Virus record (IMG/VR): IMGVR_UViG_3300022213_000237
Span: 105,568-169,567 of that record
Source: a virus
Strand: one strand, 5' to 3'
DNA: 64,000 nt
Below, piece by piece: positions 40,401 through 64,000 of the stretch; within the stretch, counting starts at the first letter, position 1, and every line of letters starts with the position of its first letter. The position numbers were made by a program, and so were the translations under genes. A model generated the notes under the pieces. That model ran no database searches. It was given only the letters and a program-made list of their open reading frames with translations, and was not told where the DNA came from.

Positions 40401-40721
40401 CCTACCGATGTTCCTAGTGATTTTGAAGATGATGAATGCGACGCCCTCAGATACGTGATTGTGAATTTGTTTGGTAATCGTAGCAATATGGTGGCGGCAA
40501 TTGGTCCCGTGGCTCCCGGCGTTCAGTACGACCCTTCCTTTCCGGCGCCACGAGATGGAATGGGAATACCTCCTGGTATTTCCGTGTATCAAAACGAGAC
40601 TATTCTTGAATCTACTACTGAAAATTGGATGGATCGTAAAATTCAAGAACTTACCGGCAACCACGAAGATCCCAACGTCCCGAAATCCGGACGTAAAGGT
40701 TCTTTCAGCTTTGATTTTTGA
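37461..40721 (+). CDS. terL: terminase large subunit, intein-containing
   Basis: Walker A variant AARDSFKT, Walker B MVLDE, TSTR, nuclease GMDWG, ADPED, DDECDALRY. Confidence 0.9.
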   Translation: MDKLPKLTPAQLEFLAANREQLERRALFAVCISKEHLHAWIKRYLKIDLPDTIVCDDDVTTPASNSTPMDLVWEIYQKALQGDDEKFQRVLAYAARDSFKTLSASVLEILCLFHLRRDVAHMAAIEAQAQKAASYVSKYLNFPYLRDFVSGNNKREIRITRYEDSRGNILTPREFEELEPRDQRKYEPISHYMKIVIATLSGANCVDPTTFIRLANGEDVLAVDIKSGDEILNFDLKNHTWTTSKVGSVVSSIKAAMKVSLDDGSYVVVSEDHPVLTTRGWIRARALRLTDKVLPPPISSTTQVIKPPILADGVTLESFSVDQLILGSVLGDSSLTWPKNSSGDNYGSGPRFQVYHCAAQLPYLYHKKEILENAGIKCSVYMDPRGGGKLMTGVLPQYADYYRMMYPENKKQVTKEWLSKLTDEGLAYWLMDDGSGSPQKLGSRKDKHISIATCGFSLQEHQLIVDLFLAKGLNPKIGTVTNQSSKTWNVIEFDLDSSRELSSRLDKWIHPVLKYKFPTPFQLLDTRCIETGAPIQRSSGLGFSRITRTPKVSERERWSAFRDMFTRSIQQLEFLGKRVMMDISVDTDDEMKRNFVANSSLLLHNSEHVSFMVLDELDLAPAGPVEEAKMIPAPGQVRGELPITFMTSTRKFAIGLVQQEIDKAQKDSDYHLQIRHWNIIDVTKRCEPKRHLPEEPKIPIYYSEHSLRAISEPEYNLLSTEEKTKFLKQEGYAGCLRNCSLFAVCKGRLATKQKVTDDNVKPRPMLKPIPHVLTQFKSVNPDHAKAQLMCWKPSSEGLIYPFFNYSRHMIDAAEMYEKITGEEIPKDQLNNFTKADLIKVLQEREVEFYTGMDWGYTHNWAAVTGAKVGHRFFVFDVIAVAELEVMQKIEMYKNKLGFLDATVFADPEDRSSIETFRKNGVRMRKWKKGSVIGGIDAVRTKLMPGLNKEPELYFLANDEGCELLADRIAKYAWVLDATQKPTDVPSDFEDDECDALRYVIVNLFGNRSNMVAAIGPVAPGVQYDPSFPAPRDGMGIPPGISVYQNETILESTTENWMDRKIQELTGNHEDPNVPKSGRKGSFSFDF
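38073..39275 (+). mobile_element. intein (401 aa, class 1) with LAGLIDADG endonuclease in terminase
   Basis: CVDPTT start, SEDHPVLT, LGSVLGDS and LAYWLMDDG, ends LLHN then Ser; visibly more AT-rich than flanks. Confidence 0.93.
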
Positions 40722-41737: not shown

Positions 41738-43756
41738 ATGGCCGAAAACAAATCACCTCCAGGACCATTGCAGGCCGTCGTCGATGCTAAGGTACAGCGC
41801 TCCGGTGGGCGTATCAAATTCTCTCTTCATGATATCGATGAAGAAGGGAAGCTCCGCAAGTCCAAGGAAGAAGAAAATCCGTTGGCGGGTACCAAGCTTC
41901 AAAAAAGTTTCGTCAATTACACCGAAGACGTTAAGCGTGGGAAGGAAGTTAATCGTCTATCTTTTGAGGTAGACCCGACACACGCAAATTATTATCAGTC
42001 GTTGTGGATGCCTAAGTGGGGGCAACTTCCTGACCATGTCTTAAAACAAGTCTCCCTAAAAGATTCGTTGGTCGCCTCGATACTCACCATGCGCTCAAGC
42101 CAGATGTCTGCGTTTGGACGCGAATTGCAAGATCGCTTTGCTTCTGGTTATCGTATTGAGCCTCGGCCAGGTGTGATGGAAGATGCGTCCAATGAGCAAA
42201 AGGAGCTGCTCCAGAAGAGAATTGAAGATGCCAGTAAGTTGATTTCTACTTGCGGCTCTATCGAGGGGGTTCGTTTTGATGAGCGCATGTCTCTTTCTAC
42301 CTTTTTGTCGCTGCAAACCCGCAACGCTCTAGTTTTTGGTCGTTTTGCCACAGAAATTATATACACCCGAGATCCAGACGGAACTCGTAAATTTCACAGC
42401 TACCGGCCTGTCGATGCTGGGACCATTTACCAAGCGGCACCACGTCAAGATCATCTCAATCAAGTACGTAAAGAGGCTCTGCACCTACTTCAGCAGCTAA
42501 AAGGGCCAGATGCAGAAAAATTGAGTGCAGAAAAGTTTGAAAACGACGAATACGCCTGGGTGCAGGTGCTGGATGGCAAGCCTCGGCAAGCCTACACACC
42601 GGAAGAGATGGTCGTTCATAACATGTTTCCGTTAACGGATATTGAGTTGCGGGGTTATCCGATTAGTCCGATTGAAACCGTAATCGATGGCATCGCCACC
42701 CATATGAACATTGTACAGCACAATAAACTGTACTTTCAAAGTGGTCGAGCTGCCCGTGGTATGGTCGTCATTAAGTCACCGGACGTAGACCAGGGACTTG
42801 TGGCGCAAATACGTCAACATTTTAACGCGTCTATTAATTCTGTTTCTAACGCTTGGCGTGTACCTGTTTTTGGTGTTGACCCCGAAGATAGCGTCGAATG
42901 GGCACCCTTTGATATGTCCTCGGGCCGTGACATGGAGTTTCAATACCTATCTGACCAAAACGCGCGGGAAATTTGTTCTGCGTTCTTGATTTCGCCAGAA
43001 GAGCTACCCGGCTATCAGCACCTTAGTCGCGGCACTAACTCTCAGGCGCTTAGCGAAAGCTCTAATGAGTATAAGCTTGAGGCTGCTCGAGATGTCGGTA
43101 TCCGGCCTCTACTTAATCATTTCCAAGATTTCTTAAATGATCACATTTTACCTCTTATCGACCCCGCAGTTGCGCAGCTGTGCTCGCTAAAGCTCTACGG
43201 TCTCGATGCTGATACCGAAGAGAAAGAAGATACAGGTCTCACCAATCGTATGCAGATTGACCTGACCATGGACGAAATCCTTGAGCGTAAGGAAAAAGAT
43301 CCAGTTGGGAAAGAGTGGGGAGGGAAGTTTCTCTTCAATCCTGCTTGGCAGTCGGTGCTAGATAAGTATTTTAAGGTTTCGGACATCAAAAAACATTTCT
43401 TTGGGTTACAGCCCACAGAAGACGATGAATATGTAAGAGACCCCTTTTGGTTCAATTACCAACAGCTGAAGATGCAGGCAGAGCAAATGGAGCAACAAGC
43501 TCAGGCGCAACAACAGCAAGCTCAAGCCGAGAGCGGTGGTGAAGTCCAGGACGAAAGCCAAGAACAGGATTCTCAATTAGCTCAAAGCGCAGACAAAGCC
43601 ATTGATTTGATGAGCAAGAGCGAGAAACAACTGCCTCCCGGTAAACGGCGTTTGTTACATCTACACAAGAAAATCGTGAAAGACGCCATGGCGGAATGGG
43701 AAAAAGACAGTAAAGAAGCCTTGGCTGCGGTCGTGCAAGCCGTGAAGGACGAATAA
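41738..43756 (+). CDS. portal protein
   Basis: RPVDAGTI, GYPISPIE, YFQSG..ARG, NAWRVPV, DMEFQ..ICSAFLISPEEL, GIRPLL portal motifs. Confidence 0.88.
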   Translation: MAENKSPPGPLQAVVDAKVQRSGGRIKFSLHDIDEEGKLRKSKEEENPLAGTKLQKSFVNYTEDVKRGKEVNRLSFEVDPTHANYYQSLWMPKWGQLPDHVLKQVSLKDSLVASILTMRSSQMSAFGRELQDRFASGYRIEPRPGVMEDASNEQKELLQKRIEDASKLISTCGSIEGVRFDERMSLSTFLSLQTRNALVFGRFATEIIYTRDPDGTRKFHSYRPVDAGTIYQAAPRQDHLNQVRKEALHLLQQLKGPDAEKLSAEKFENDEYAWVQVLDGKPRQAYTPEEMVVHNMFPLTDIELRGYPISPIETVIDGIATHMNIVQHNKLYFQSGRAARGMVVIKSPDVDQGLVAQIRQHFNASINSVSNAWRVPVFGVDPEDSVEWAPFDMSSGRDMEFQYLSDQNAREICSAFLISPEELPGYQHLSRGTNSQALSESSNEYKLEAARDVGIRPLLNHFQDFLNDHILPLIDPAVAQLCSLKLYGLDADTEEKEDTGLTNRMQIDLTMDEILERKEKDPVGKEWGGKFLFNPAWQSVLDKYFKVSDIKKHFFGLQPTEDDEYVRDPFWFNYQQLKMQAEQMEQQAQAQQQQAQAESGGEVQDESQEQDSQLAQSADKAIDLMSKSEKQLPPGKRRLLHLHKKIVKDAMAEWEKDSKEALAAVVQAVKDE

Positions 43757-45756
43757 TGGCTAAGATCAAGCGCCTGTCTAAAAAGACGATGACTAAAATA
43801 GCCGACGCCGTCGACGCCCTCTTCGACAAAATGAAGGTGCGGCTTCTCGGCCCTCGTATGGTGGATAAGAAACTATTTATCACCTACAATCGCGAGAAAT
43901 CGTTACCCGGTCTCTACGAGCAGGCGCATATCGAAGAGAAAGGTATTCCAGACAAGGAACATCTTGATCAATTGGTGCGTACCACTGAAAATTACTTAGA
44001 AGCAGTGCGTCATCGAGCGAAGGCTAAGACCGTGGTCGCGGTACAGTCATTTATGGCCGAAAATCCTGACGCTAATGTAACCGACGTCCTGGGTGGCGAA
44101 CTTGCTGATATTTATGGTCAGGTTAAGCACGAGGTACGTAGGATTGCGGATACCGAAGCCCAGCATTTTCGCAATGTTGGTGTGATGGACGGTATTGTAA
44201 GAGTTAGCGCCGCCCACGGCATAAGTGATCCGATAGTGTATTTTGTTACAGTCAGAGACCAATACAGATGCGAGGAATGTACCCGACTCCATTTGCTTGA
44301 AGACGGCATCACTCCACGTGTCTGGAAATTGTCCGAATTAGGACATGGATATCATCAAAAAGGTGATGAAAATCCAAAGGTTGGGGGACTACACCCACAT
44401 TGTAGGTGCGTGTGGGATGGAAACGCACCTGTAATTACAGAGTCTGGTATCAAACCACTTAAATCTGTAGAGATAGGCGACCGGGTATTGACTCATACTG
44501 GTAAGTTTAAGAAAGTTATTGGTACTTTTTCTAAAGATGGTCTACTGCCGGAGAAAACGGACGACGTATACCGAATAGAATTCAGGTCCCCGCTGGGAAA
44601 AATACACAAGCTGCGTGTTACCAACGATCACTTAATGTTAACTCAGCGTGGTTGGGTGAGGGCCGAGGCCCTGGTCCCCGGTAAAGATACATTAGAATAT
44701 CTATTCGCTTCTTGTGAGACATGCAAAAAAGCATTTCCTCATAATATTCAAAAGCCTCGAAAAAGATTCTGCTCTTATAAGTGTTCTATTTCTGACAAAA
44801 TAGGTAAACCAAGTCCTACTCTTGGCAGGAAAGCTACACCAGAAGAAAAAGAGTTGAGATTAAAATCCATTAAAGCACTTTACGAAAAGAAGCACAAAAC
44901 AACATTCCCCCAAAAGACTGTTAATTGTAACGGGTGCGGAAACGAGTTTACAGTTGAAACTGGGTATAGGGATAAGTCTGGACATTGGGTGTCTCGTAAG
45001 AATTATAAGCTCGAGTATTGCTCTCGATCGTGTATTTCTAAGGCCATAGCTCTCAAACAATGGTCAAGTGCTGAACATAGACTTGCTGTTTCGGAAGCTA
45101 ATCGAAAATCTATGTTAGAACAATATCGTACTGGCAGACGCAACCCTTTAGGTATTAAAGAAGCCAGGCAAGCTCTTTACGGTTTGGGTCGAGGCGGAAG
45201 TAAAGACGAGAAACGTTTGTATCAAACAATTAAAAGCTCTTACTTAGACGCCGAATCCAACTATTCGATAGGAAGATATTTTGCTGATGTTGCTATTCCA
45301 TCTATTAAGACAGTTGTAGAGTGGGACGGTGGTGGTCACTGGCTTGATGTATATAAAGGCAAAAAGACTATGGAAGAAAAGATAGCTGAAGACGCAACTC
45401 GTGATGAGTTTATGAGAAGTTTGGGGTGGCACGTTCTCAGATATACAGAAGAAACAGGGTTTAGCACAATATTCGAAGATATCCGGAGGGTGGCTCAAAA
45501 TTCTACTGGTCAATACTCATTCAGGCCTGTTGAAATTGTCAAAGTAGTTAGAATTCCAGCCAGCAAAGCCTCCCCTGGAAGGAGATTATATGATATAACT
45601 GTAGAGGATGATTCTTCTTTTGTTGTTATGGGTATTGTTTCTCATAATTGTTCTATGACCACACTTCTTCCCGGATTCGGATTTGATAGTGCCGGTATGG
45701 TTGCGTGGAAGGGTGAACATCACGACGAGTTTGAGCGCCAGCGTGCAGGGCTTTAA
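43756..45756 (+). CDS. MuF/SPP1 gp7-like head morphogenesis protein, intein-containing
   Basis: RRIADTE, D.yrCeeC, LHPHCR[intein]C motif; directly after portal. Confidence 0.85.
   Translation: MAKIKRLSKKTMTKIADAVDALFDKMKVRLLGPRMVDKKLFITYNREKSLPGLYEQAHIEEKGIPDKEHLDQLVRTTENYLEAVRHRAKAKTVVAVQSFMAENPDANVTDVLGGELADIYGQVKHEVRRIADTEAQHFRNVGVMDGIVRVSAAHGISDPIVYFVTVRDQYRCEECTRLHLLEDGITPRVWKLSELGHGYHQKGDENPKVGGLHPHCRCVWDGNAPVITESGIKPLKSVEIGDRVLTHTGKFKKVIGTFSKDGLLPEKTDDVYRIEFRSPLGKIHKLRVTNDHLMLTQRGWVRAEALVPGKDTLEYLFASCETCKKAFPHNIQKPRKRFCSYKCSISDKIGKPSPTLGRKATPEEKELRLKSIKALYEKKHKTTFPQKTVNCNGCGNEFTVETGYRDKSGHWVSRKNYKLEYCSRSCISKAIALKQWSSAEHRLAVSEANRKSMLEQYRTGRRNPLGIKEARQALYGLGRGGSKDEKRLYQTIKSSYLDAESNYSIGRYFADVAIPSIKTVVEWDGGGHWLDVYKGKKTMEEKIAEDATRDEFMRSLGWHVLRYTEETGFSTIFEDIRRVAQNSTGQYSFRPVEIVKVVRIPASKASPGRRLYDITVEDDSSFVVMGIVSHNCSMTTLLPGFGFDSAGMVAWKGEHHDEFERQRAGL
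44407..45648 (+). mobile_element. intein (414 aa) with zinc-finger and Vsr/DUF559-like endonuclease
   Basis: CVWDGNAPVIT start, VTNDHLMLTQRGW, YFADVAIP..VVEWDGGGHW..RDEFMRSLGWHVLR, LYDITV..IVSHN then Cys. Confidence 0.9.
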
Positions 45757-45966: not shown

Positions 45967-48900
45967 GTGAAGACGTCAATGAATAAGCTAACTAAATCGA
46001 TGGTTATTGATGGAATTGCAGCTTCACAAGCTATTGATTCTTCAGGTGAAATCTTAGACATCGAAGGCTTAGATATTTCGTCAGTTAAAGAGGGTACGGC
46101 TCAAATAAATTACGAGCACCGCTCTGATTCGTCTGATGGGGCGAGCGCCAATGATATTATTGGCCATATCACTTACGCGAAGAAGATTTTTGGTCCCAAA
46201 GACTGCGAAAACGACCGACAACTTAAGTACTGGAATTCGGTCCAGTTACCGTTTGTGTACATCAAAGCCGAGCTTTTTGACGGTGAGGGGCATGTCGGAG
46301 CACAGGCAGCGGCGGCATTGATTCGATATTACCACCTCCGACGCCTACCCCTTGTGGCGAGATACTCAATCGAGGGATCTACTTTAAAACGAGAAGGCAA
46401 CACCCTCAAACGCTCTATAATGAAGAGGGTTTCTCTCACCGTAAAACCTTGTAATCGTTCATGCATTTCTGGTGTTCTTTCCGATGGCGAAAAACCCGAA
46501 GCTTCACCAGACGCGCTTGAAAGTCTTAAGCGTTTTGAGAATCCAGGTCGTGCGAAACTCGGCGGCTACGAAGGCGAATTCGAACCCGTGGTTTTAGACC
46601 CTCTTCAGAAGATGAGAGACGCGGTGGAATCGCTGCGTGAGATGAATAATCTCAATAAAGCTCTTTCAGCTGGCGGCTTTGATGCTGTCCCTACAACTCT
46701 TACTGGCGGAGCCGCACTTTCGGCTGAGAATTTTGGCGACGTTGAGAAGAGAAAGAAATTTATTAAGAATCAGGTTCTTGGCGCCGTACGTGATTGGCGA
46801 GGTCGTGGTGACCTTCGGAAGTTTCTGAAGCATCGTATGCCCGACGCATCAGAGGACTTCATCAATCATTTTGCTGCTCTGGTCGAAGACTATCAACTTA
46901 AGAAGTTTGCCGACCTTGAAGCCAACCTAAATAAGGCAGTAGCTGGCGGCGCCGTTGCAGGTAAGACTCCAGCGGCTGCGATACAGCCCGCAGACAAACT
47001 GGCACCAAAGAAACCTGATTCTAAGGTCCAGACCAAGGCCAAGGCACAAAAGCTGGCGACCGTGGAGCAACATCACGCCAAAGTCAAAGCCACACAAGAA
47101 AACGAAGATAACCTAACCGAAGCCGACCTTGGCGATCAACCTTTAACCGTGCGCGGTAAAGCGGTACGCGCGAACGACAATATCACGTCTCCTCATTTTG
47201 ATGAGCGAACAGGTACTCTACACACTCAACGCGGGTCCTTCAAGATGTACTTGCCGCAGGAAGATAAATTCCCAGGCGCTTTAGAGTCATTCCATAACGC
47301 TCTGAATGATCCAAAGGCTACTCATTTCCATGACTACGCTACCAGTAATTGGCTGAAGGTTCACAAACTTCTTAAGGAGGGTCGTCTGCCTCCGGAAGTG
47401 ATTATGCACAGTGTGTTGTTTTCACAACTGAGTCCCAATACACCTGTCCCCATGCAGGAGCTAATGTACGGACATTTAGTGGACACCATGAAGGAAAAAG
47501 GGGTAGATGCCCGTTCGCCTTCATTCTCTTCTATTAAAGACGATTGGATAGGCAGAGATACCGGTAAGAAATTCCCTGAAGTGGCGGGAGATTTTTTCCA
47601 ACAGAATCAAGGAATCCGTCTCAAAAACCCAACATCTACTAGAGAAGCTGGAGATATGGGGAGTTTCATGCTTGCGAACAACAAGTTCAAAAACATGGAA
47701 CAGTATCATGGTCTCCATAATTCGTTAGTGGAGCTGTTTGGTCGTCATAGTACCGATGCCCGCGCAGCCGTTTCCGAGCTTATGGGTCATAAGCATAAAG
47801 CCAACTTGTGGGAAGCAAGGCGTGCTCGCGAAATCGAGAAAGGTAGACCCGATCCTGGTGAATATGCCGATGGCCCAGCAGTCCCAGGCCTAGCACCAAA
47901 GACTGGACGCTACATGGCGGCCATGATTGGCGGCGGCAACGTCCACGTGCCAGATACCCATTTTGCCCGTTATTTATTTGGTCTCGAGAAGGGTACGGAT
48001 AAGCGTTCAATTGCTTACCTCAAAAACACTTTATGGAATCCCAACAACAGTCACGTTCTTGAGGGTATCGATCGTTTTTACGCCACGAATCACCCAGCTG
48101 TCCAGCACATGATGGATCATCCTGTTTTTGGTAAACAGTTTGCTTCCCGCGAAGACGCTATTTTCCCCGCGTTCTGGAAGAATTGGATAGCTATCGCACC
48201 ACACGAGCGAGCACGCAAAATGAAGACCATGGCTTACAACGAAGCCACGGACCATAAACCTTTCTGGGAAGCCATCGCTCCATTTACGAAAGCAGAAAAC
48301 GACGATGTGAGCTTTGACTTTGGTGCTAATGCGGACACACATGCACATGCGCGTAAGGTTGTTAATCGATTACGAGAACCTAATCGTTCTGTGGGTCATG
48401 CTTTTGTGGATTATGTTGTTGGCAAGTCCCCAAAACGTCCAGATATTCACCCCGACCTGGAACGACATCTAGCTCGTCACGGCATTGTTGATCCAGCTGG
48501 ATACGGATTCGATGAATCTGGCCGCAGTATGCGCCGACCTATTCCGGGTCCGCGTAAAATTGGTCGCGGCGAGGAGCCTCGAGACCTACACAGATTCAGG
48601 ATGATGAATCGTGGCTGGGATCCCGGCTACGTCAAAGGCGAGCTAGAGAAGTCTGAATCCGGAAATACATTGCCGCAGCAAACGGCACGGCTGCATGCTC
48701 AATGGGTTGAGCAATACGGCGAGATTCCGGCGCAAATGCTATACTACGCTCACATCGTTCCTCAGCTGTTGCGCGCGAGCCGCAGAAACGAGAACGTGAT
48801 TGTCAAGTTTCAGCGTATAGCCGAAGATTTACGTAAGGCCGTACCTCAAGACCCGCCATTGCCAGAATTACCTAAACACGACACCACAGGCTTACATGAG

Positions 48901-50055
48901 TTTCAGAATTCTTGGACTAAGCCCGGTGAAATCGAACTAACAGCCGGCCCATTCAAAGGCAGTAAGCTCGCATATCTTGGTAAGGATAGCTTGAAAGGTA
49001 AGCATTTTGCTAAAGCCCCGACCGGCGAACTACATACTCTACCATTTAGTCAGGAAGGCAAGGCGTTCAAAATCAATGTTCCGCCTCAACCCGTCAAATT
49101 GCCGGCGTATGTGGATGCAAATCAACATAGCGATCCTCTTAATAAGACGTTTGCTCAGAAGTCGCTCTTACACGGCATTGATATCAATGATCGTGTGGGT
49201 CGCATCGAAACCGAAACACTTACGTCCAGCGCCCCAGGTGCCGGTTGGTATAAGAATCATGCGGGTGAGATGGGTTTGGTCAAACCTGATCCAAAAGGGG
49301 CTGCAGATTGGTGGGCTGATGAAGATCCAGAGTATGTTCGTGCTCAAAAATCTTACGACTTGCCAAGTCGTGAAGCTTTGTATCCGGTCATGGCCAAAGA
49401 ATTTTTCGGCATGGGTCAATATGTGCCCACTACCGCCAAGTTTACTCATCCTAAGACGGGCGAGCCTATGTCCGTTCAGCAGCGAGTTGCTGGCGCCGAA
49501 CATGTCGACATAGATGACGACGACCACGCCTACAATTTACACAAACTCTACAGTCAAGGCGAGTTAGATAAGTTAGGCCTCATGGATATCTTGATGGGTA
49601 ATAATGATCGCCATCAAGGTAATTTTATGATGACTTCAAAAGAGCCACATGTTCATCTAATAGATAACGGATTATCTTTGGATTACAAGAATCCGTTGAT
49701 ACCTCACGAAGTATGGCTATCTCATCAATGGATGACTGACCATATGCATGGGCATCCCAGCTTCGGCGCTCATCCGATTCATGCAGCCGCCACCAACTGG
49801 TTGCTTGGATTGGATCATGGAGAATTTGTTAAACAACTTCTTAACCATGGTGTTCCCGAAAACATTGTCAAGCATGCGTCGCGACGCATGCAGGCTCTAC
49901 AATTAGAAGCTGCGCAATCAAAACTCGACCCCGCGCAGCCGTTTACACGGGCCCGCGCTGGCCACGTTGTCGATAACCTCAATGGATTTGTCAATCGTTG
50001 GGGTTCACCATTTGTAGCGGCAAAACCTAAGGCCACAAATTCGGACTCAGAGTAA
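45967..50055 (+). CDS. prohead protease fused to HhH-GPD glycosylase-like and PI3/4-kinase/HipA-like domains
   Basis: N-term IDGIAA..IDSSGE..INYEH..IIGHI..YSIEG protease; VPGLAPKT..VPDTHFAR (~47881-47970); REAL..VPTT..DILMGNNDRHQGN..LIDNGLS (~49250-49950). Confidence 0.8.
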   Translation: MKTSMNKLTKSMVIDGIAASQAIDSSGEILDIEGLDISSVKEGTAQINYEHRSDSSDGASANDIIGHITYAKKIFGPKDCENDRQLKYWNSVQLPFVYIKAELFDGEGHVGAQAAAALIRYYHLRRLPLVARYSIEGSTLKREGNTLKRSIMKRVSLTVKPCNRSCISGVLSDGEKPEASPDALESLKRFENPGRAKLGGYEGEFEPVVLDPLQKMRDAVESLREMNNLNKALSAGGFDAVPTTLTGGAALSAENFGDVEKRKKFIKNQVLGAVRDWRGRGDLRKFLKHRMPDASEDFINHFAALVEDYQLKKFADLEANLNKAVAGGAVAGKTPAAAIQPADKLAPKKPDSKVQTKAKAQKLATVEQHHAKVKATQENEDNLTEADLGDQPLTVRGKAVRANDNITSPHFDERTGTLHTQRGSFKMYLPQEDKFPGALESFHNALNDPKATHFHDYATSNWLKVHKLLKEGRLPPEVIMHSVLFSQLSPNTPVPMQELMYGHLVDTMKEKGVDARSPSFSSIKDDWIGRDTGKKFPEVAGDFFQQNQGIRLKNPTSTREAGDMGSFMLANNKFKNMEQYHGLHNSLVELFGRHSTDARAAVSELMGHKHKANLWEARRAREIEKGRPDPGEYADGPAVPGLAPKTGRYMAAMIGGGNVHVPDTHFARYLFGLEKGTDKRSIAYLKNTLWNPNNSHVLEGIDRFYATNHPAVQHMMDHPVFGKQFASREDAIFPAFWKNWIAIAPHERARKMKTMAYNEATDHKPFWEAIAPFTKAENDDVSFDFGANADTHAHARKVVNRLREPNRSVGHAFVDYVVGKSPKRPDIHPDLERHLARHGIVDPAGYGFDESGRSMRRPIPGPRKIGRGEEPRDLHRFRMMNRGWDPGYVKGELEKSESGNTLPQQTARLHAQWVEQYGEIPAQMLYYAHIVPQLLRASRRNENVIVKFQRIAEDLRKAVPQDPPLPELPKHDTTGLHEFQNSWTKPGEIELTAGPFKGSKLAYLGKDSLKGKHFAKAPTGELHTLPFSQEGKAFKINVPPQPVKLPAYVDANQHSDPLNKTFAQKSLLHGIDINDRVGRIETETLTSSAPGAGWYKNHAGEMGLVKPDPKGAADWWADEDPEYVRAQKSYDLPSREALYPVMAKEFFGMGQYVPTTAKFTHPKTGEPMSVQQRVAGAEHVDIDDDDHAYNLHKLYSQGELDKLGLMDILMGNNDRHQGNFMMTSKEPHVHLIDNGLSLDYKNPLIPHEVWLSHQWMTDHMHGHPSFGAHPIHAAATNWLLGLDHGEFVKQLLNHGVPENIVKHASRRMQALQLEAAQSKLDPAQPFTRARAGHVVDNLNGFVNRWGSPFVAAKPKATNSDSE

Positions 50056-50541: not shown

Positions 50542-51768
50542 ATGAGCAAAAATATTCTTAAACTTTTTGACGACCTCAAAAAAATGGACCCAACGCTCTC
50601 GCAAGCATTGGCAAATATTCGTGCTGGTCGCGCTACGCCTCAAGATGCAGATGTAGTCAGCAGGGGCCTATACACAGACACGATGATTCCGCGTATTGGC
50701 AATAAATACGCTTATAATGATCATGTTTCTCGACACGCAAATGATGGCATCCATACCCATTTAGATTTAAACGATTTTCGTCAAATCAATAAACAGCATG
50801 GCCAGCAACACGGGGACGCCGCCATTAAACAATTTGGTAACATTGCAGCCGACGTATCCCGCATGTTTGGCGGCAAAATGCATCGCCGTGGCGGCGACGA
50901 GTTTTCTGCTTGGTTTCATCGTCCGGAAGCTGCGCACGGGTTTGCGCGCGAACTCAGAAATCGGTTAGAGAAAACTCCTAAAGTCGCGGGTACACACAAT
51001 CTCGCAGCTTCTATCGGTATCGGCTACACACCAGAGCATGCCGAGAAGGCCTTACTCGAGGCCAAAAAGCAACTTGGTTCCACGGATCCAACTACAGGTC
51101 AACGTGTTAATGTGCATAGTGTAGGAAACGCTCCTACCGTAATCCATAGCTTGACTCACGAACAGCCTCCCGAAAACTGGAAGCCATCTAAAGGTCAGGC
51201 GCCCGGCCAAGCCAAAGAGTTGCCATCTTTAGCTCCAGCCGGATTACAATTTAATAACCCGCTCGCAAAAAGTACTGCTAAACAGCCGGTACCCTCAAAA
51301 CATCCGGCTCTAGAAGGTGGAAGAGTAGGTATCATGACTGGTGAAAATCCTTTTCATCCGGCTACCGCCTCTGGCGGGAACGCGGGTCTCGAAAACGAGT
51401 TACGGAGTAGGGGGTTGCGTTTTGAGAAGGTTAAGGGAAAGTATTCTGAAGGTGAGCCAGAAAATAGTTTCATCATTCACGACGTCGATGCTCCAACGCT
51501 AATGGATTTAGGTAAACGCTACGGGCAAGACAGCGTACTCCATTCTCATAATGGTACTCATAAACTAATTTACACAAACGGACCTAATGAAGGCACATAT
51601 CACCCTGGTCACGGATTAACGGTTCATCCACAAGAGCCGGAAATGTACTATTCGACCTTAGTCCATAATGGGAATCCGGTTCACTTCACTATGAACTTGG
51701 ATTTTGATCAGAAACTTCCTTTGTCTTCTCATTCGACTCAGAAGCCTTCGAACCACGAGCAGCAATAA
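50542..51768 (+). CDS. GGDEF diguanylate cyclase domain fused to DUF3293-like domain
   Basis: TDTMIPRIGN, DLNDFRQIN..HG..HGD, RRGGDEF (50890-50904), ASIGIG, AEKALLEAK; C-part IMTGENP..ENSF..GKRYGQDSVL. Confidence 0.85.
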   Translation: MSKNILKLFDDLKKMDPTLSQALANIRAGRATPQDADVVSRGLYTDTMIPRIGNKYAYNDHVSRHANDGIHTHLDLNDFRQINKQHGQQHGDAAIKQFGNIAADVSRMFGGKMHRRGGDEFSAWFHRPEAAHGFARELRNRLEKTPKVAGTHNLAASIGIGYTPEHAEKALLEAKKQLGSTDPTTGQRVNVHSVGNAPTVIHSLTHEQPPENWKPSKGQAPGQAKELPSLAPAGLQFNNPLAKSTAKQPVPSKHPALEGGRVGIMTGENPFHPATASGGNAGLENELRSRGLRFEKVKGKYSEGEPENSFIIHDVDAPTLMDLGKRYGQDSVLHSHNGTHKLIYTNGPNEGTYHPGHGLTVHPQEPEMYYSTLVHNGNPVHFTMNLDFDQKLPLSSHSTQKPSNHEQQ

Positions 51769-52594: not shown

Positions 52595-53521
52595 ATGCCT
52601 AAAAAGACTTACACAAACGAAGAGCTGAACGCGCTGGTGGCCGAGTTTTCCGCAGAGTTCGACCAGCTCGTTAAAGCAGAAGTCGCAAAAAGCGGTGCTG
52701 CTTTAGCCAAGTCTGAAGAACTTCGTAAGGACGATGAGTCCAGCGATGGAGATGACCAGAAGTCGCCTCCTCCAGACAGCGCTTCCGCAGATGCTTCTTC
52801 ACCTGCTCCGGCAGCTTCCGCAACTTCTCCAGACCCAGCTTCTCCTGCAGACGCTTCGGCACCTCCTGCAGACGCTTCGGCACCTCCGGCTCCCGACGCT
52901 TCTGCTTCTGCTCCGGCAGACCCCGCAGCTTCTGCGGCAGGAAGCGATCCTATGGCGGCTCTGACTCAGGCGTATTCGCAACTCTCTCCAGATGAGTTGG
53001 CTATGCACTTTCAGGCGCTTAAGCAGGTTCTTATGGCCGGTCAAGCTGGCGCCGAAGGCGCTGGAATGCCCGCAGACCCTATGGCAGGCTCTTCTGCTCC
53101 GGCTGCAGGTCCAGCAGCAGTAGCTCCTCTCGCAGGAGAAGGAAGCCAGCCTGTCGATCCAGCATCGACGATGGCGCTCAAGAGCGAAAACGAAGAATTG
53201 ACTCTCGTCAAGTCTGAGCGTGATGCCGCCGCAATGAAAATTGCGGAACTTGAGAAGTCCGTTGCTGCACTTACCGATTCACTCGGCAAAGTGTTGGCTC
53301 AGCCGATGCGAAAATCAATCACCGGCAAAGACATCGCAGGTGTTCTTGCTACTGACCCGAAACCGGCTCCTAAGTATGAGTCGATGACGAAGTCTGAAAT
53401 TACTAAAAAGCTACTCACTGTAGCTAACGACCCCGCACTGAAGAAGTCGGATCGTCAACTGATTAACAACTATTACAAGGGTGAAGCAAATGTCGAAGCC
53501 CTTGCACACCTTCTCAGCTAA
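52595..53521 (+). CDS. capsid scaffolding protein
   Basis: Directly upstream of MCP; coiled coil plus Ala/Pro/Asp low complexity; many xxKS(E) motifs. Confidence 0.65.
   Translation: MPKKTYTNEELNALVAEFSAEFDQLVKAEVAKSGAALAKSEELRKDDESSDGDDQKSPPPDSASADASSPAPAASATSPDPASPADASAPPADASAPPAPDASASAPADPAASAAGSDPMAALTQAYSQLSPDELAMHFQALKQVLMAGQAGAEGAGMPADPMAGSSAPAAGPAAVAPLAGEGSQPVDPASTMALKSENEELTLVKSERDAAAMKIAELEKSVAALTDSLGKVLAQPMRKSITGKDIAGVLATDPKPAPKYESMTKSEITKKLLTVANDPALKKSDRQLINNYYKGEANVEALAHLLS
52842..52887 (+). repeat. 21-bp tandem repeat (about 2.2 copies) encoding PADASAP
   Basis: CTCCTGCAGACGCTTCGGCAC at 52842 and 52863. Confidence 0.9.
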
Positions 53522-53559: not shown

Positions 53560-54963
53560 ATGGCCGCAGGACTAATTGAAAAGCTAGACGAGCTGCGCAA
53601 AGCTTTGGAAGCGGGTAACTTCAACGCCCGTCCTTCGAGCCTTGTTCAGGGCTCCGCAATGCAAGTGGAAGACATTTCGCCAGTGATGGTTAATGTCACC
53701 TACAATGACAAAACTCTTAAACTCCAGAAGAAACTGGGAGTGAAGCCCGCGAAGGGAACCTTCATCCAGTTCCTACGACGTTTGTCGTACGGTACCTGGG
53801 GCGGATCCGCTCAGCTCGAAGGAGCAGTTGGTAATGAGCAGACCGGTGATTACGTACGTGCCGGTATTCCGATGGCGTACTACTCGGAAGTTCGTCGCGT
53901 CACCCACGTGGCATCGCTCGTCAAGACTGTTACTGGCGAAGATCCGAAAGAGCTGGAAGCGGAAGCCGCTGCTCTTCGTCTCGCTGGCGACATCGAGTTC
54001 GACTGTTTCCGTGGCAAGGCCGACTTCACCAACGCAGGCGTGTTCGATGGTAACCCCAACGTCATCCCCGCGCTCGCGAACATGATTGGTCTCGAAGTTC
54101 AGATCCGTCAGTCCGATCTGCAGAGCAACACCCAGGACCTGATGTTCGAAGCCTACGGCTCGGGCCTCTCGGTCGTCATCAATGGTGGCTCGACGCTGTC
54201 GAAGAGCAACATCGAAGACGCTCATGTTCGTAGCCAGATGAACCACGGCACTGCGGACAAGCTCTTTGTCGACCCTCTCGTTCTGTCCGCACATAACAAA
54301 ATTATGTGGAACAACGAGCGCGTGGTTCTCGGCGCTTCCGCCCAGGATGCGACCGGTCAAGACCTTCGTCGCCAGTTTGTTTCCGGCGGTATGGTCGAAA
54401 TCGAAGCTTCCCGTTTCCTCTCGGGCAAGTTCAAGTCGAGCCGTCCTCGTCTTAACGCTCCTGCGGCACCGTCGATTGCTGTTGACGCGACCAACGCCTC
54501 GAGCACGGCATTCGTTGCTGGCCAGGTTTACACCTACTACGTTACGGCTGAAAACAGCCTCGGCGAAGGTTTCCCCTCGGCTAGCGCGTCAGATACTGTT
54601 ACCGTCAACGGTAACCGCATCGACGTGACCATCACCCCCGGCGCAGGTACGCAAACGTTCTTCAACGTTTACCGTTCACCCGCTGGTGGAAGCGCGGCGC
54701 AAGCTCGCTTCATCGGTCGAATCGTGAACTCGGGTGCTGCGACCACGGTGTTCCGAGACCTTGGCAACAAGATCCCCGGATTCGTGACCGGCTTCCTGGT
54801 GCAAGAAGACACGATGGAACTCATGGAACTGTCGGCATACAGCCGCATGAAGCTCGCGGTCACCGACCTGTCGGAACCCGAAGCCCACTTCAGATTCCTT
54901 TGCTTGAAAGTTACGGAGCCCAGAAAAAATTGTTTGATCGATAACCTCCGTGGCGATCTGTAA
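53560..54963 (+). CDS. major capsid protein (SPO1/Twort-like)
   Basis: N-arm LRKALEAG..GSAMQVE, IEFDCFRG, GLEVQI, C-terminal APAAP..YTYYVTAEN..GE..PS..FNVYR; strong RBS; followed by terminator. Confidence 0.88.
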   Translation: MAAGLIEKLDELRKALEAGNFNARPSSLVQGSAMQVEDISPVMVNVTYNDKTLKLQKKLGVKPAKGTFIQFLRRLSYGTWGGSAQLEGAVGNEQTGDYVRAGIPMAYYSEVRRVTHVASLVKTVTGEDPKELEAEAAALRLAGDIEFDCFRGKADFTNAGVFDGNPNVIPALANMIGLEVQIRQSDLQSNTQDLMFEAYGSGLSVVINGGSTLSKSNIEDAHVRSQMNHGTADKLFVDPLVLSAHNKIMWNNERVVLGASAQDATGQDLRRQFVSGGMVEIEASRFLSGKFKSSRPRLNAPAAPSIAVDATNASSTAFVAGQVYTYYVTAENSLGEGFPSASASDTVTVNGNRIDVTITPGAGTQTFFNVYRSPAGGSAAQARFIGRIVNSGAATTVFRDLGNKIPGFVTGFLVQEDTMELMELSAYSRMKLAVTDLSEPEAHFRFLCLKVTEPRKNCLIDNLRGDL

Positions 54964-55088: not shown

Positions 55089-56849
55089 ATGTCTGAGCTT
55101 ACACCAGAAGAAAAAAAGAAACGTAGAAACGAGCAGATTCGTATCGCCAGAGCCAAACGTTTTGAAGACCCAGTTTATAAAGCAGAACAGCTTCGGAAGA
55201 ACGCGGAACGCACGGCTCGACTGCGGGCAAAGAAAATAGCGGCTGACCCGGATTATTTACGTAAAGAGGCTGAATACAATAAAAAATATCGAGCCAAAAA
55301 TTCAGAAGCACTTCGGCAACAAAATAAAGAATATCACGCCCAACATAGAGAAAAACGAAATGCGGCCACAAGAGCCTGGAAAGAGGCTCACCCCAAAGAA
55401 TCTGCCCCCAACTCCAACATCGTTGCTCCAGAGATCAAGCTTAAAATCGTAGAGCTTCGCAAACAAGGTATTGAGCAGGCGGAGATTGCGAAGCAGTTAG
55501 GGATTAAAACAACGACAGTAACGTACGTATGCCACCAAGCCGATATCATTCTCACAAAAGAGCAGCGTTCGGCTAGAACCTGGGGCGATACAGATTTACA
55601 GCGGCTTAAGGACCTTCGGAAAGAGCATCCAGATTGGACCAGAAGACAGTTAAGCCAGGCCACCGGATTCAGTGTCCCCACCATCAAAAGAATATTGGCG
55701 TTAGCTGGTCCTGACGCCGCTTTGTCGCCAGAACAAATACAAATCAACGCTCGCGCCGCAAGAACCGTTAACGCAGAAGAGCGACTATTACAGAGATACG
55801 GTGGAAAAAGTTGGCAAGAGGTAATGAGCCTTCTTGCTTCGCGTCGCGGAGGGAAGGTTTTAGGTCAATATCAAGACCACAAAGTGAAATTGGAATTTGA
55901 ATGTCAAGAGGGCCACAAATTCTTTGTGGTTCCCAATGGTATCCAACAAGGGCAGTGGTGCGCAAGATGCGCTAATGTTGGGCCATCCAAAGCCCAACTA
56001 GAGATTTCTGAATACGTAAAGTCTTTGGGGATAAAAGTAGTTGATGGAGACCGATCGGTCATCAAACCCCTGGAAATCGATATTTACTGTCCTGAGATTG
56101 GATTAGCCATAGAGTACAATGGATTATATTGGCATTCTTCAGCTGTACTTAAAGAGCGTGGTCGGCATTTTAGAAAATGGCAGGCTCTGAATACCGCTGG
56201 AATCGATTTGTTTGCTATTTTTCAAGACGAATGGATTGTAAAGAGAGATCTCATTCAGGCTATGATTCGCCAGCGGGTGGGAAAATCTTCGGCACACAGA
56301 ATTTACGCCCGAGACTTGGAATTTAGAAGAATTGCGAGAGACGTCGCCGTCGAATTCTTTGAACGAAATCATCTCGACGGAGCTGGAGCGTTTTTTGACG
56401 CGTACGGGCTTTTTGACGGAGATAGGTTGATAATGGCCGCAGCCACGAGAACCAACTTTAATGGTGAATTCGAACTCGCTCGTATGGCCACGGATTATGA
56501 TTTTGCTGTACCTGGGGGCGCGAGTAAATTGCTGACACATATAGGTAGACCCATCATTTCATTCAGCAACAACCGACTATCTAACGGTAACGTTTATAGT
56601 AAACTGGGAGGTAAGTTGATTCAAGTGAACTCACCATCCTATTGGTATACAGACGGCACGGCAAGGATTTGGAGATGGAAATGTAGACGTATCAACACCC
56701 CTGAGATTTTGGCCAGATACCCCACAGAAGAATTGCAAGCCCTTAATGGAGTATTTAGTAAAAAAGAGTTCGGAGACGACCGTAAGCTATTTCGTATTGA
56801 AGATTACGGGCATCAGAAGTGGGAACTTGATTTAAAGATCCCCCGATAA
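55089..56849 (+). CDS. Hef-like free-standing homing endonuclease (PD-(D/E)xK) with HTH repeats and GNAT-like C-terminus
   Basis: HTH repeats, FECQEGH..WCARC ribbon, LEIDIY..LAIEYNGLYWHS, NHL.G..ELARMA..VPGGASKLL. Confidence 0.75.
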   Translation: MSELTPEEKKKRRNEQIRIARAKRFEDPVYKAEQLRKNAERTARLRAKKIAADPDYLRKEAEYNKKYRAKNSEALRQQNKEYHAQHREKRNAATRAWKEAHPKESAPNSNIVAPEIKLKIVELRKQGIEQAEIAKQLGIKTTTVTYVCHQADIILTKEQRSARTWGDTDLQRLKDLRKEHPDWTRRQLSQATGFSVPTIKRILALAGPDAALSPEQIQINARAARTVNAEERLLQRYGGKSWQEVMSLLASRRGGKVLGQYQDHKVKLEFECQEGHKFFVVPNGIQQGQWCARCANVGPSKAQLEISEYVKSLGIKVVDGDRSVIKPLEIDIYCPEIGLAIEYNGLYWHSSAVLKERGRHFRKWQALNTAGIDLFAIFQDEWIVKRDLIQAMIRQRVGKSSAHRIYARDLEFRRIARDVAVEFFERNHLDGAGAFFDAYGLFDGDRLIMAAATRTNFNGEFELARMATDYDFAVPGGASKLLTHIGRPIISFSNNRLSNGNVYSKLGGKLIQVNSPSYWYTDGTARIWRWKCRRINTPEILARYPTEELQALNGVFSKKEFGDDRKLFRIEDYGHQKWELDLKIPR

Positions 56850-61375: not shown

Positions 61376-63901
61376 ATGTTTGATATGCGCCAAATTAACA
61401 GAATGATGGATGCGGTCAAATCGCATTTGAGCGATAGAGCACCGCACCAGGGTGCAGCCTGTCATTTAAGCGGTAATTGTTATGTCCAAGCCGAAGCTCT
61501 GCATCACCTGCTTGGTGGCGAACAGACTGGATGGGTTCCGCACACACTCCAAGTTGATGGCGGACCACATTGGTTTCTTCGCCATAAACACAGCGGTACG
61601 ATTTTAGACCCGACTCGCCCAGAGACACCTTTGTCTTACGACCAAGGCAAGTTCACCGCCTTTCTTACTAAGCAGCCATCAAAACGCACTCAAGTGGTGT
61701 TGAATCGCATCGCTGGCGACCATGATCCCGTCTCTAAATCCGAAGACTTTGATAAGGCAGTTTTAGATCCTAATTCTGGGTATAGATTTGAGCATAAAGC
61801 CATACCCATGACGAATCACTATGGGACAACTCCCGAGTCTCGTTATTATAATATACATCAAGTCAGCGCCTTTGCTCCTAACGGTGAAGAAATAGGTAGA
61901 GCCACCTTTAATCACGATAAAGCGTCTAATACGTTAGAAACTGGAAATACCTTTGTACACGAAAATCATCGTCGTAAAGGTATTGCGTCAGCAATGTATT
62001 CGCATGCAGAAAAAGCTACTGGAATGAAGATAATTCCTTCCAAAGCTCAGTCTAAAGATGCTCAAGCTTTATGGGCAGCAAATTCTGCGAATAAACAATT
62101 TGGTAAATCCGAATCCTCAGCCGACCATAGCACAAAAACTGCGGCCAGCATCGCCGTCTTCAATAGTGAAGGTCACTTGCTAATGGGTCAGCGTAACGAC
62201 TCAAAGCGATGGACATTGCCTGGCGGCAAAATGGATGTCGGAGAACTGCCAGAAGAGTGTGCGCGCCGAGAACTTCAAGAAGAAGCCGGTCTACAAGCGA
62301 AGCGACTTAAATTCCTTGGTCGCGGAGTTGGAGGCAAAGACAGCGACTGGACAGTGTACTCTTTCGAAGCTCATTGCGACGACAAACCTGACGCCGGCAA
62401 CGACCCCGACAAAGAGTGCGATTCTTGGGAGTGGATTCCTGTAGCTGATGGTTTGCCGAAGGAAATCTCGAACCAGTTACATAATCGCGATCGCGACGTC
62501 ACTCTCCAGCTACTAGGCCTCCAATCAGGAAGCTTGGAGCCAACAGAGTTATCCAAAGGTTTAAAGCATAGATTCTTGGGCGCTATCGCCGCCGCAGGAT
62601 TAGCGATGTCGCCTCAAGCTCTTGCCGGTGAGCCCGACAAAAAGCCAAGCCTTAGCGGTCTGCACCACGAATTACATCCCATTGCGCAGCTTGAGTCTTC
62701 TGGTGGGAAAAATATTAACCATAAACCACACTCGCTTGGTGAATTTCATACTGCCGTCGGGGCAGTTGGATTGAAGCCAAGCACGGCACATGACGAATAT
62801 ATGAAGTCGTCGTGGTTACAAAAAGTATTCCCAAACATTAGCGATCCCCAAAAATTCACGCACGAATTCAAGAGGAACGACGCCCTCTACAATCACACAG
62901 CCACATCCCATTGGCACCGACTCAAAAAACTGTTTGGCGGTGATACAACTAAAGCCGCTTATGCGTGGCGTTGGGGTCAGGGAGCAGCACTTCGTGACGC
63001 TCCGGAAGTACAGGCCGGAGACCCTTATGTCCAGGCGTATCAGAAGCTTACTAGCAAAGCACGTGCGGCAGCAATGGGCCGACACCTGATCAACCCGCTT
63101 TCGAAAGAGGAAGTCGACAAGTGGACCTCAATGGGCTCGAAACCTTCAAAAGCTAAGTCGCTGCGTACTTTTGATCATTATTCGATGCAACCCGGTCTCA
63201 AAGAGTTGGACCCTAAATTCCAGGGCACTGGGTCGGTGGGGCCCGAGAAAGGTAGACCCAAACGTATTCCGCGTGTATACATGTACGCCGCCGATACCGC
63301 ACCAGAACAGCATGTGGCCGCCGCGTCTCGTGCCAAATACAGGGTTGAGTTACCGGCAGCAGCTAAATTCTATGACATGGGCGCAGATGAGCTTGGGTTA
63401 CTAGAACCCAAAATGCGTTCAACCAAATATGGCCAATTCTACGAACCAGCCGACCTCGACGAAGTAGAGCGTAAGATAAAGCGTTTAGGTTATCACGGTT
63501 ACCATAATTACATGTCTACCGCACCTAACGCTTACGCCGTATTTACTAAGGTTAAAGCCAAAGAATTGAAGAAGACGGAGTCCTCAACAGACCATCTCTC
63601 TAAAGTAGAACCCTGGTTCCAGGCCATGTTGGCACAGAATGAAGCCCGTAAGCAGAAGATTAATGAGTTAGTGCAAACCACCAGAGGTTCTGTATGGGCT
63701 AGTCGCAATGGTGGGCATTTAGTTGTAGGCAAAGACCCACATGATCGTAGTCGTTGGCGAGTTACTCCCATCCAAAGCGATGGTACGCCTACGAGCCACA
63801 CCGTTGCTCCAGACCATACCGAAGCACTCAAGACTGCTCATTCTCTTGGCGCCAACCTACTTGATGAGCCGGTTAAAAACTACCGTTGTAAAGCGGCCTA
63901 A
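61376..63901 (+). CDS. polyvalent protein: papain/transglutaminase-like + GNAT + Nudix + lytic transglycosylase-like + ART-like + unknown domain
   Basis: GNCY..HWFL..LDPT; VHENHRRKGIASAMY; GGKMDVGELPEECARRELQEEAG; QLESSGG..GAVGLKPSTA..AYAWRWG; HYS..LDPKFQGTG..RVYMY..GYHGY. Confidence 0.8.
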   Translation: MFDMRQINRMMDAVKSHLSDRAPHQGAACHLSGNCYVQAEALHHLLGGEQTGWVPHTLQVDGGPHWFLRHKHSGTILDPTRPETPLSYDQGKFTAFLTKQPSKRTQVVLNRIAGDHDPVSKSEDFDKAVLDPNSGYRFEHKAIPMTNHYGTTPESRYYNIHQVSAFAPNGEEIGRATFNHDKASNTLETGNTFVHENHRRKGIASAMYSHAEKATGMKIIPSKAQSKDAQALWAANSANKQFGKSESSADHSTKTAASIAVFNSEGHLLMGQRNDSKRWTLPGGKMDVGELPEECARRELQEEAGLQAKRLKFLGRGVGGKDSDWTVYSFEAHCDDKPDAGNDPDKECDSWEWIPVADGLPKEISNQLHNRDRDVTLQLLGLQSGSLEPTELSKGLKHRFLGAIAAAGLAMSPQALAGEPDKKPSLSGLHHELHPIAQLESSGGKNINHKPHSLGEFHTAVGAVGLKPSTAHDEYMKSSWLQKVFPNISDPQKFTHEFKRNDALYNHTATSHWHRLKKLFGGDTTKAAYAWRWGQGAALRDAPEVQAGDPYVQAYQKLTSKARAAAMGRHLINPLSKEEVDKWTSMGSKPSKAKSLRTFDHYSMQPGLKELDPKFQGTGSVGPEKGRPKRIPRVYMYAADTAPEQHVAAASRAKYRVELPAAAKFYDMGADELGLLEPKMRSTKYGQFYEPADLDEVERKIKRLGYHGYHNYMSTAPNAYAVFTKVKAKELKKTESSTDHLSKVEPWFQAMLAQNEARKQKINELVQTTRGSVWASRNGGHLVVGKDPHDRSRWRVTPIQSDGTPTSHTVAPDHTEALKTAHSLGANLLDEPVKNYRCKAA

Positions 63902-63911
63902 TCTTGGTAGC

Positions 63912-64000
63912 ATGGAATCGCTACCTCCTGAAGATATTCAGCTGCATAAATCCTTAAAAGGATACACCTTCGGTGAGCCACAACACGAGCCTGAGCTGGG
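63912..64000 (+). CDS. partial ORF running off right edge
   Basis: ATG at 63912, MESLPPEDIQLHKSLKGY..., open to window end. Confidence 0.5.
   Translation, partial: MESLPPEDIQLHKSLKGYTFGEPQHEPEL

Follow-up and report, generated by a model that had tools for sequence, protein, structure and literature searches.

How can activities that belong to different compartments of a cell reside on a single protein chain? This question is raised by a gene in IMG/VR virus record IMGVR_UViG_3300022213_000237, of which 64,000 nucleotides (positions 105,568 to 169,567, the final 64 kb of the 169,567-bp record) were analysed. This whole stretch is referred to as the window, and coordinates are those of the window unless stated otherwise. 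A sequence-only reading of this DNA had proposed that the open reading frame (ORF) at 61376-63901 encodes six domains, each bounded by a K-S/G/E/T linker motif, and that such incompatible activities and compartments make most sense if the chain is cut apart. The ORF was found to be real: one uninterrupted frame of 841 codons on the + strand, encoding a protein of 841 amino acids (aa), P0001. The closest cultured relative of the window phage is Myxococcus phage Mx1, the capsid proteins of the two being 73% identical. We consider it slightly better than an even chance that P0001 is a head-packaged cargo diced by the head-maturation protease.

61376..63901, + strand: the whole ORF of P0001, a predicted polyvalent protein; 37 homologues, with E values down to 1e-239, and a syntenic 1479-aa orthologue in Mx1.

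P0001 could be divided into six modules (A to F), placed within a few residues of the coordinates proposed earlier, and five linkers. Confidence of the predicted structures is given as the predicted local distance difference test (pLDDT).

61376..61729, + strand: module A (aa 1-118), a YunG-like Cys-His-Asp domain, tentatively of transglutaminase/papain-like fold.
61724..61750, + strand: linker 1, PVSK-SEDFD, with KSE at aa 121-123; pLDDT below 50 at 117-125.
61751..62095, + strand: module B (aa ~126-240), a minimal GNAT acetyltransferase, from Pfam.
62093..62119, + strand: linker 2, QFGK-SESSA, with KSE at aa 244-246.
62123..62530, + strand: module C (aa 250-385), a Nudix hydrolase with a complete Nudix box at aa 283-306; PF00293, E 2.4e-24.
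62537..62629, + strand: linker 3 (ELSK-GLKHR), a hydrophobic stretch rich in Ala/Gly that resembles a signal or signal-arrest-release (SAR) sequence, FLGAIAAAGLAM, and a c-region, SPQALAG.
62633..63091, + strand: module D (aa 420-572), SLT-type lytic transglycosylase fold, from a fold match; catalytic E440 invariant.
63092..63160, + strand: linker 4, NPLSK-EEVDKW... (NPL-x-K-S/A-E in homologues); pLDDT below 50 at aa 586-593.
63161..63565, + strand: module E (aa 596-730), a domain of ADP-ribosyltransferase (ART) fold, as predicted, from an undescribed sequence family.
63566..63598, + strand: linker 5, LKK-TESSTDHLS, with KTE at aa 733-735; pLDDT 53 over aa 733-742.
63599..63898, + strand: module F (aa 742-841), a conserved domain (W774, D787-P-H789, W794-R795, H808) with 24 aligned homologues.

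The five domain identities suggested by the sequence-only reading hold, including the ART-like one that it had called its weakest. Sequence or fold placed four of the modules: B as a GNAT, C as a Nudix hydrolase, D as an SLT-type lytic transglycosylase, and E, as predicted, as a member of the ART superfamily. The placement of module A in the transglutaminase/papain-like group is tentative, being based on weak fold matches and the invariant Cys-His-Asp.

The six modules are predicted to fold independently on flexible linkers. Homologues permute the module order (e.g., C-D-B-A, C-E-D, and C-A-D) and add ART-PolyVal, PBECR5, ParB, and PI3/4-kinase domains. In a model of modules D+E+F the domains were confident (mean pLDDT 87; predicted template modelling score, pTM, 0.45), and confidence was low exactly at aa 393-417, 586-593, and 733-742, which are the linkers. 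In a more distant relative, L008 (a 14-kb Logan contig, SRR28285651, whose capsid protein is 54% identical), the place behind a 276-aa protein is taken by several small separate genes and not by one polyvalent gene; one of these encodes module E alone, as a protein of 140 aa. The permuted orders, the low pTM, the low-confidence linkers, and the free-standing module E thus argue against packing of the domains into one obligate structure, an outcome that would have spoken against a chain meant to be cut.

Each of the five junctions has the element hydrophobic-x-K, the next residue being in turn S, S, G, E, and T, just as had been described from the sequence. A total of 102 K-[STA]-E sites in the 37 homologues gave the consensus P-hydrophobic-x-K-S/A-E-(D/S)-L-(E/D)-K. 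At the C/D junction, and where the element stands at a protein N-terminus, K-S without E is found.

The distribution of this word was then compared between the head region and the rest of the proteome. The genes are arranged as portal, MuF-like protein, protease-cargo protein, scaffold, capsid, P0001 gene, and tail sheath, in synteny with Mx1 and L005, and the products of the genes between portal and sheath, 10,694 residues in total, were taken as the head region. The head region has 18 KSE against 3.3 expected from composition, and the 42,021 residues outside it have one against 10.1 expected; permuted words occur there 4-16 times. The enrichment of head over rest is 70-fold (Fisher p = 5e-12), and the shortage outside the head region suggests selection against the word in other proteins. 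A similar result was obtained for the first 100 kb of Mx1, with 17 KSE in 10,057 head-region residues against 1 in 20,434 others (p = 8e-8).

The densest carrier of KSE is an acidic scaffold-like protein rich in Pro/Ala, whose orthologue in L008 has ten hydrophobic-x-K-S/A/G-E/D sites. A variant, hydrophobic-x-K-A-L/M-E-A-G, is conserved at the capsid N-terminus in the three phages.

52595..53521, + strand: scaffold-like protein of 308 aa, acidic and Pro/Ala-rich, directly upstream of the capsid gene; 4 KSE and 1 KAE.
53560..54963, + strand: major capsid protein, with LRK-ALEAG at its N-terminus, conserved in Mx1 and L008.

Moreover, homologues that start with the Nudix module begin with M-x-L-G-K-S-Q (the linker 2 element) at the extreme N-terminus, where there is nothing upstream to link. 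It may be noted that MSKSE stands at residue 627 of the portal protein (41738-43756, 672 aa), and that the Mx1 portal has sites at 47 and 639, which suggests that the portal may be trimmed as well. A short motif shared by head proteins, including the scaffold, and restricted to them is what is expected of substrates of a head-maturation protease. Head restriction, depletion elsewhere, and N-terminal retention would all be explained by a recognition site for the head protease, and not by a plain flexible linker.

These observations have to be weighed against another use of the word, in which P0001 is packaged and injected as one intact chain, like the N4 virion RNA polymerase, T7 gp16, or P1 DarB. 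The word would then be a docking or recognition element (e.g., for scaffold or portal binding at loading), or a favoured flexible linker spread by shuffling. Iyer et al. (PMC5512222) note that several polyvalent proteins are delivered unprocessed, two junctions of P0001 lack the full consensus, and the motif travels with the modules, so that shuffling from shared ancestry could spread it. Shuffling leaves the tenfold depletion of KSE in non-head proteins unexplained, however, and it accounts neither for a non-polyvalent scaffold-like protein as the densest carrier nor for the motif at the extreme N-terminus of the Nudix-first homologues. Module E is, moreover, encoded separately in L008. We regard delivery as an intact chain, whether the word serves for docking or as a linker, as unlikely.

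If P0001 is indeed cut by the head-maturation protease, the enzyme should be encoded in the genome, and a candidate is found in the protein that follows the MuF-like protein.

45967..50055, + strand: protein of 1362 aa; its N-terminus is a candidate head-maturation protease, fused to PI3/4-kinase-like cargo.

Residues 5-54 of this protein match phrog_1028 'head maturation protease' (E 1e-4), and its Mx1 orthologue is annotated 'putative prohead protease'. The C-terminus matches PF00454 (PI3/4-kinase-like); hence, the candidate protease appears to be itself fused to cargo. The 666-aa protein after the portal was also considered as the protease and rejected, being a weak MuF-like protein interrupted by an intein. 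This protein lies at 43756-45756, and the intein, at approximately residues 220-631, includes an endonuclease (Hint/Intein_splicing, DUF559, and HNH-like hits).

The mechanism that we propose has four steps. P0001 would be made alongside the head proteins and loaded into the prohead. The protease, for which the N-terminal domain of the 1362-aa protein is the candidate, would then cut the five hydrophobic-x-K-[S/A](-E) linkers, after K or after E, giving six products of 12-20 kDa, as the motif statistics suggest. By analogy with Alt and the internal proteins (IPs) of T4 and with the ejection proteins of phiKZ/SPN3US, the pieces would leave the head together with the DNA when the next cell is infected. 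There, the modules would act separately: modules A, B, and E (Cys-His-Asp enzyme, GNAT, and ART fold) on host macromolecules, the Nudix module on a nucleotide-diphosphate substrate, and the freed lytic transglycosylase, with the signal/SAR-like segment at its new N-terminus, on peptidoglycan. Strong, if indirect, support for a chain that is cut apart comes from a KSE word that is enriched in the head, depleted elsewhere in both phages, and kept at the N-termini of Nudix-first homologues; cleavage as such is deduced from these patterns.

Several points weigh against this mechanism. The assignment of the protease is weak (22.9 bits over 50 residues), and the genome had no match to the Pfam models of the S77 and S78 proteases. 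Of the five junctions of P0001, two (LSK-G and LSK-E) depart from the K-S/A-E consensus, and the broad motif hydrophobic-x-K-[SAG] is just 1.7-fold enriched. No capsid-targeting signal was identified, and an internal hydrophobic signal-like segment is awkward for a protein packaged from the cytoplasm. A literature search on Mx1 virion data gave nothing useful; packaging and cleavage both stand as predictions.

The cutting enzyme might also be sought within P0001 itself. In module A, C35, H65, and D78 are invariant across 25 homologues, and the predicted model places the Cys at the N-terminus of a helix and the His and Asp on successive strands. Module A could, with this triad, be a cysteine peptidase that cuts the linkers in cis or in trans, in the manner of the MARTX cysteine protease domain or of the MPTase domains for which Iyer et al. 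proposed autoproteolysis in the polyvalent class (PMC5512222). The weak fold matches of module A include the peptidases LapG, vasohibin, PeiW, and NlpC/P60, but deamidases, acyltransferases, and transglutaminases are just as frequent among them. Module A is absent from many homologues that have the same linkers, the motif reaches its highest frequency in non-polyvalent proteins such as the scaffold, and in phiCbK-like phages the module A homologues are free-standing genes near the DNA polymerase, outside the head modules. Self-cutting by module A, be it likened to MARTX or to the MPTases, is thus very improbable. As for its family, the YunG models PF24585/PF24591 had no match in P0001, and the homologues scored 17-23.5 bits against a cut-off of 27. 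Literature searches on YunG gave nothing useful. More generally, Pfam (E ≤ 10), PHROGs (E ≤ 10), and profile searches against PDB sequences gave nothing usable for modules A, D, E, and F.

Module B matched PF00583 (Acetyltransf_1), whose cut-off is 20.7 bits, with 21.3-25.2 bits; the isolated segment reached 25.2 bits with this model and matched PF13508 (Acetyltransf_7) with 27.6 bits against 27. The coenzyme A (CoA) loop, RRKGIA, lies at aa 199-204. The module is short (~115 aa) and the match is limited to the central GNAT motifs. Module C matched PF00293 with 86.3 bits against a cut-off of 21.1 and phrog_1198 with E 2.4e-19, and the box GX5EX7REUXEEXGU is complete. Its nearest relatives in the PDB (NUDT1, MutT/ADPRase, NUDT15, MTH1, and RppH) are of the generic MutT/NUDT1 type; consequently, no substrate can be inferred from them. 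The roles suggested in the sequence-only reading, breakdown of alarmones or ADPR-type immune signals by Nudix, and deamidation and other modification of host proteins by further modules, are speculative.

The predicted structure of module D has the lysozyme-like SLT fold, and T7 gp16 and a pre-ejectosome protein of a cyanophage are among its fold matches. Among 34 sequences E440 is invariant, S441 is conserved in at least 90%, and the motifs GAVGLKPSTA and AAYAWRWG are conserved; these were equated by eye with the GLMQ-like and AYNxG-like motifs of the family. No SLT sequence model matched module D, in Pfam (E ≤ 10), in a six-frame search of the genome with PF01464, in PHROGs, or in profiles of PDB sequences. 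Hence, module D appears to be a divergent family of lytic-transglycosylase fold and not a member of the recognised SLT family.

The junction between the Nudix and SLT modules differs from a simple linker, and this had been overlooked in the sequence-only reading. K-G-L-K-H-R is followed by FLGAIAAAGLAM, a 12-residue Gly/Ala-rich hydrophobic run, and by the AxA-like end SPQALAG; the segment is modelled as disordered (pLDDT below 50). At least 22 of the 34 homologues have a Gly/Ala-rich stretch of 12-19 residues before module D, with 14-19 residues free of charge, a K/R-rich stretch ahead, and an AxA-like end, and in some of them a KSE site stands immediately ahead of the segment. The segment bears directly on the argument from incompatible compartments: if the chain were cut before it, module D would, by pure inference, gain a signal-peptide or SAR-like N-terminus, which would resolve the conflict.

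The same arrangement ahead of module D agrees with another role for P0001, that of a late enzyme of the producing cell and not a virion cargo. Module D would then be a muralytic lysis enzyme, the hydrophobic segment inserting the chain N-in/C-out, or the freed module being exported by Sec. This role was retained as a rival because the Pfam models of six endolysin families (SLT, Phage_lysozyme, Amidase_2, GH19, Peptidase_M15_4, and GH25) had no hit genome-wide; likewise, the annotation of the first 100 kb of Mx1 lists no endolysin. On the other hand, a divergent endolysin may escape the six families searched and the 100 kb of Mx1 annotation covered. N-in/C-out insertion would leave module F and the ART-fold module, which by this fold assignment would need NAD+, in the periplasm. 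The gene lies among head, neck, and tail genes, away from recognisable lysis genes, and it is in ejected internal proteins, T7 gp16 for example, that lytic transglycosylase domains are typically found. A lysis enzyme, inserted or exported, is therefore an improbable account of P0001.

Packaging and dicing by the head protease, to return to the favoured reading, would also deliver modules E and F. The predicted model of module E appears, by structure match, to have an ART-like fold. The letters HYS, GTG, and YMY, singled out in the sequence-only reading, all fall on conserved columns (H601, S603, G617, G619, and Y637). The conserved residues in the alignment are H601, S603, Y637, E644, Y655, Y666, and D671, which may include the H-Y-E or R-S-E catalytic constellation of the ARTs. 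By sequence, module E did not match ART-PolyVal (PF18760): Pfam had no hit in aa 580-745, and hhalign against two ART-PolyVal domains gave a probability of 0.09, the sole resemblance being a local GYxG...F at the C-terminus.

Module F was modelled with a pLDDT of ~97 as a long helix, then four to five strands, then a helix, the conserved domain extending over aa 742-835. It had no Pfam or PHROG match, and none in the fold lists of the 449-residue D+E+F model, in which it was not searched alone. In Mx1, module F is found in a different late gene, beside an mCpol (minimal CRISPR polymerase) domain. The orthologue of that gene in the window phage lies at the genome start, outside the window (L004 5147-6988), and encodes a 613-aa late protein with an N-terminal mCpol and three TAKSE/VAKSE sites.

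When 1.84 billion representative proteins were scanned in full with HMMER, 424 matched at E ≤ 1e-3. They are 100 to 2,800 residues long and carry E, F, or both, free-standing forms included. Among 50,697 GenBank phage records, Mx1 alone has module E or F. Two undescribed domain families, a module of predicted ART fold and a module of ~95 aa, are thus defined, with at least 424 representative metagenome clusters and almost none in sequenced phage isolates.

A bolder extension, which we offer as a doubtful possibility, is that Mx1-like phages run a polyprotein factory inside the head. The cargo-fused protease, with hydrophobic-x-K-S/A-E as its recognition word, would dice some ten late proteins into several dozen small effectors, and E and F would be new and widespread families of injected effectors. 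Perhaps, on the same tentative footing, the Nudix, GNAT, ART-fold, and Cys-His-Asp modules would be joined by kinase, ParB, mCpol, and GGDEF partners. It is similarly conceivable, if somewhat doubtful, that the signal peptide of module D would be unmasked by the cut and that, after injection, host Sec would export D alone to the periplasm while the other modules stay cytoplasmic.

The surroundings of the gene were also examined. The P0001 gene is positioned between the capsid gene and the tail sheath gene, the latter at the contig start, and is hence taken to be a late gene of the structural region, in a contractile-tailed phage of the Mx1 type. The order major capsid, thymidylate synthase, dNMP kinase, small ORFs, a ~282-aa protein, the large 'NUDIX hydrolase', and a kinase is shared with Mx1. 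The upstream 282-aa protein had been labelled a neck gene; this was not confirmed, its sole match being phrog_772 'tail fiber protein', with no Pfam match. A megablast of the P0001 gene against the 50,697 phage records gave no match.

The first ~130 bases of the record repeat its last bases; therefore, in spite of its linear label, the genome appears to be circularly closed or permuted. The two copies of the overlap (window 63870-64000 and contig start 1-145) differ by a T/G mismatch and by the length of an A run.

63875..63879, + strand: homopolymer A5 near the 3' end of the P0001 gene; the copy at the contig start is A6, altering the last residues of the protein.
63912..64000, + strand: a second predicted polyvalent protein of 818 aa, which runs on at the contig start (L004 56-2512); GNAT, ParB-like, GNAT, and PI3/4-kinase/HipA-like domains.

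The A5/A6 difference turns the C-terminus of P0001 from ...VKNYRCKAA into ...VKKLPL, and its final residues are uncertain for this reason. A run of A4 or A7 would join the 841-aa and 818-aa ORFs in frame. Fusion or a programmed frameshift with the downstream ORF as the normal state was rejected: in Mx1 and L005 the two genes are separate, 2-7 nt apart. The 818-aa protein, which the sequence-only reading had also missed, has LLKSE, VHKAE, and VKKSE linkers of the same type as P0001; its ParB-like part has DGNHR, and it holds a GNAT paralogous to module B. Its orthologue in Mx1 and L005 is a shorter 'kinase'.

Some other genes of the region may be mentioned. At 37461-40721, in the position of the terminase large subunit of Mx1 (667 aa), a protein of 1086 aa is encoded that contains an intein with a LAGLIDADG endonuclease (PF03161, E 1.8e-21). 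A gene for a 586-aa homing/HNH endonuclease (55089-56849) lies between capsid and thymidylate synthase and is not at that position in Mx1. A 408-aa head-module protein (50542-51768) combines GGDEF (E 4.6e-11) with a DUF3293/SAM-lyase-like domain; in L008 the latter is a separate 160-aa gene adjoining the free-standing module E.

How does P0001 compare with known systems? The polyvalent-protein class was defined computationally by Iyer, Burroughs, Anand, de Souza, and Aravind (2017, J Bacteriol; PMC5512222), and its members were predicted to be injected (PMC5512222). P0001 has at least two disparate domains, the location of a late virion gene, and variable architectures that share hallmark domains, and is by these features to be counted in the class. 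Like the proteins of that survey, homologues of P0001 carry ART-PolyVal (PF18760), PBECR5 (PF18814), ParB, GNAT, and kinase domains. In contrast, Nudix is mentioned there once, and no Pfam model exists for the YunG-like module A or for modules E and F. Linkers are mentioned zero times, and the autoproteolysis proposed there is by MPTase domains, which P0001 lacks. The same group predicted that Nudix and ART domains are often packaged in myovirus heads (PMC9503650).

The syntenic orthologue in Mx1 is WNM70333.1 'NUDIX hydrolase' (1479 aa, OR576727.2), with 41-52% identity and the same linkers. It shares with P0001 module A, GNAT, Nudix, the signal-like segment with SLT, and the C-terminal part of module E. 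In addition, it has an unknown domain of ~290 aa, a true ART-PolyVal, and a ParB-like domain; it lacks module F, which in Mx1 is in the other gene, with mCpol.

In T4 (Alt, IPI-III) and phiKZ/SPN3US, a short word, established as the cutting site of the prohead protease, likewise recurs in the scaffold, the head proteins, and the enzymes carried as cargo, which are packaged and ejected. In SPN3US, gp245 cleaves the head and ejection proteins behind A-X-E, where P4 is hydrophobic and P1' is Ser (PMC10052503). The word of the window phage is hydrophobic-x-K-S/A-E, then D or S, and differs from A-X-E in its invariant Lys. A further difference is that the proteases of T4 and phiKZ/SPN3US mostly remove N-terminal propeptides, whereas in P0001 the motif is found between every pair of catalytic domains, which would imply dicing in the style of a polyprotein. 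Compared with T7 gp16 and other ejected lytic transglycosylases, the SLT module of P0001 has a signal/SAR-like segment ahead of it and enzymes of cytoplasmic type on its flanks. Module E showed no detectable sequence kinship with ART toxins and effectors (ParT, the RES-domain proteins MbcT/NatT, diphtheria toxin, AcrIF11, and ART-PolyVal). The architecture of P0001 is thus ordinary for the polyvalent class, and its linker signature is strong and replicated. Not described in the cited sources on polyvalent, myovirus, and prohead-protease proteins are a protease-type word between every pair of catalytic domains, the internal signal-like segment, and modules E and F as families.

Polyvalent proteins, although recognised as a class, have hardly been put to the test. 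To the question of how one chain serves different compartments, the Mx1-like clade offers an answer that is concrete and testable: the signature of the linker word points to dicing by a protease inside the capsid, and Mx1 can be cultivated on Myxococcus. If real, a cleavable linker together with a packaging route would be a practical means of loading foreign enzymes into phage heads.

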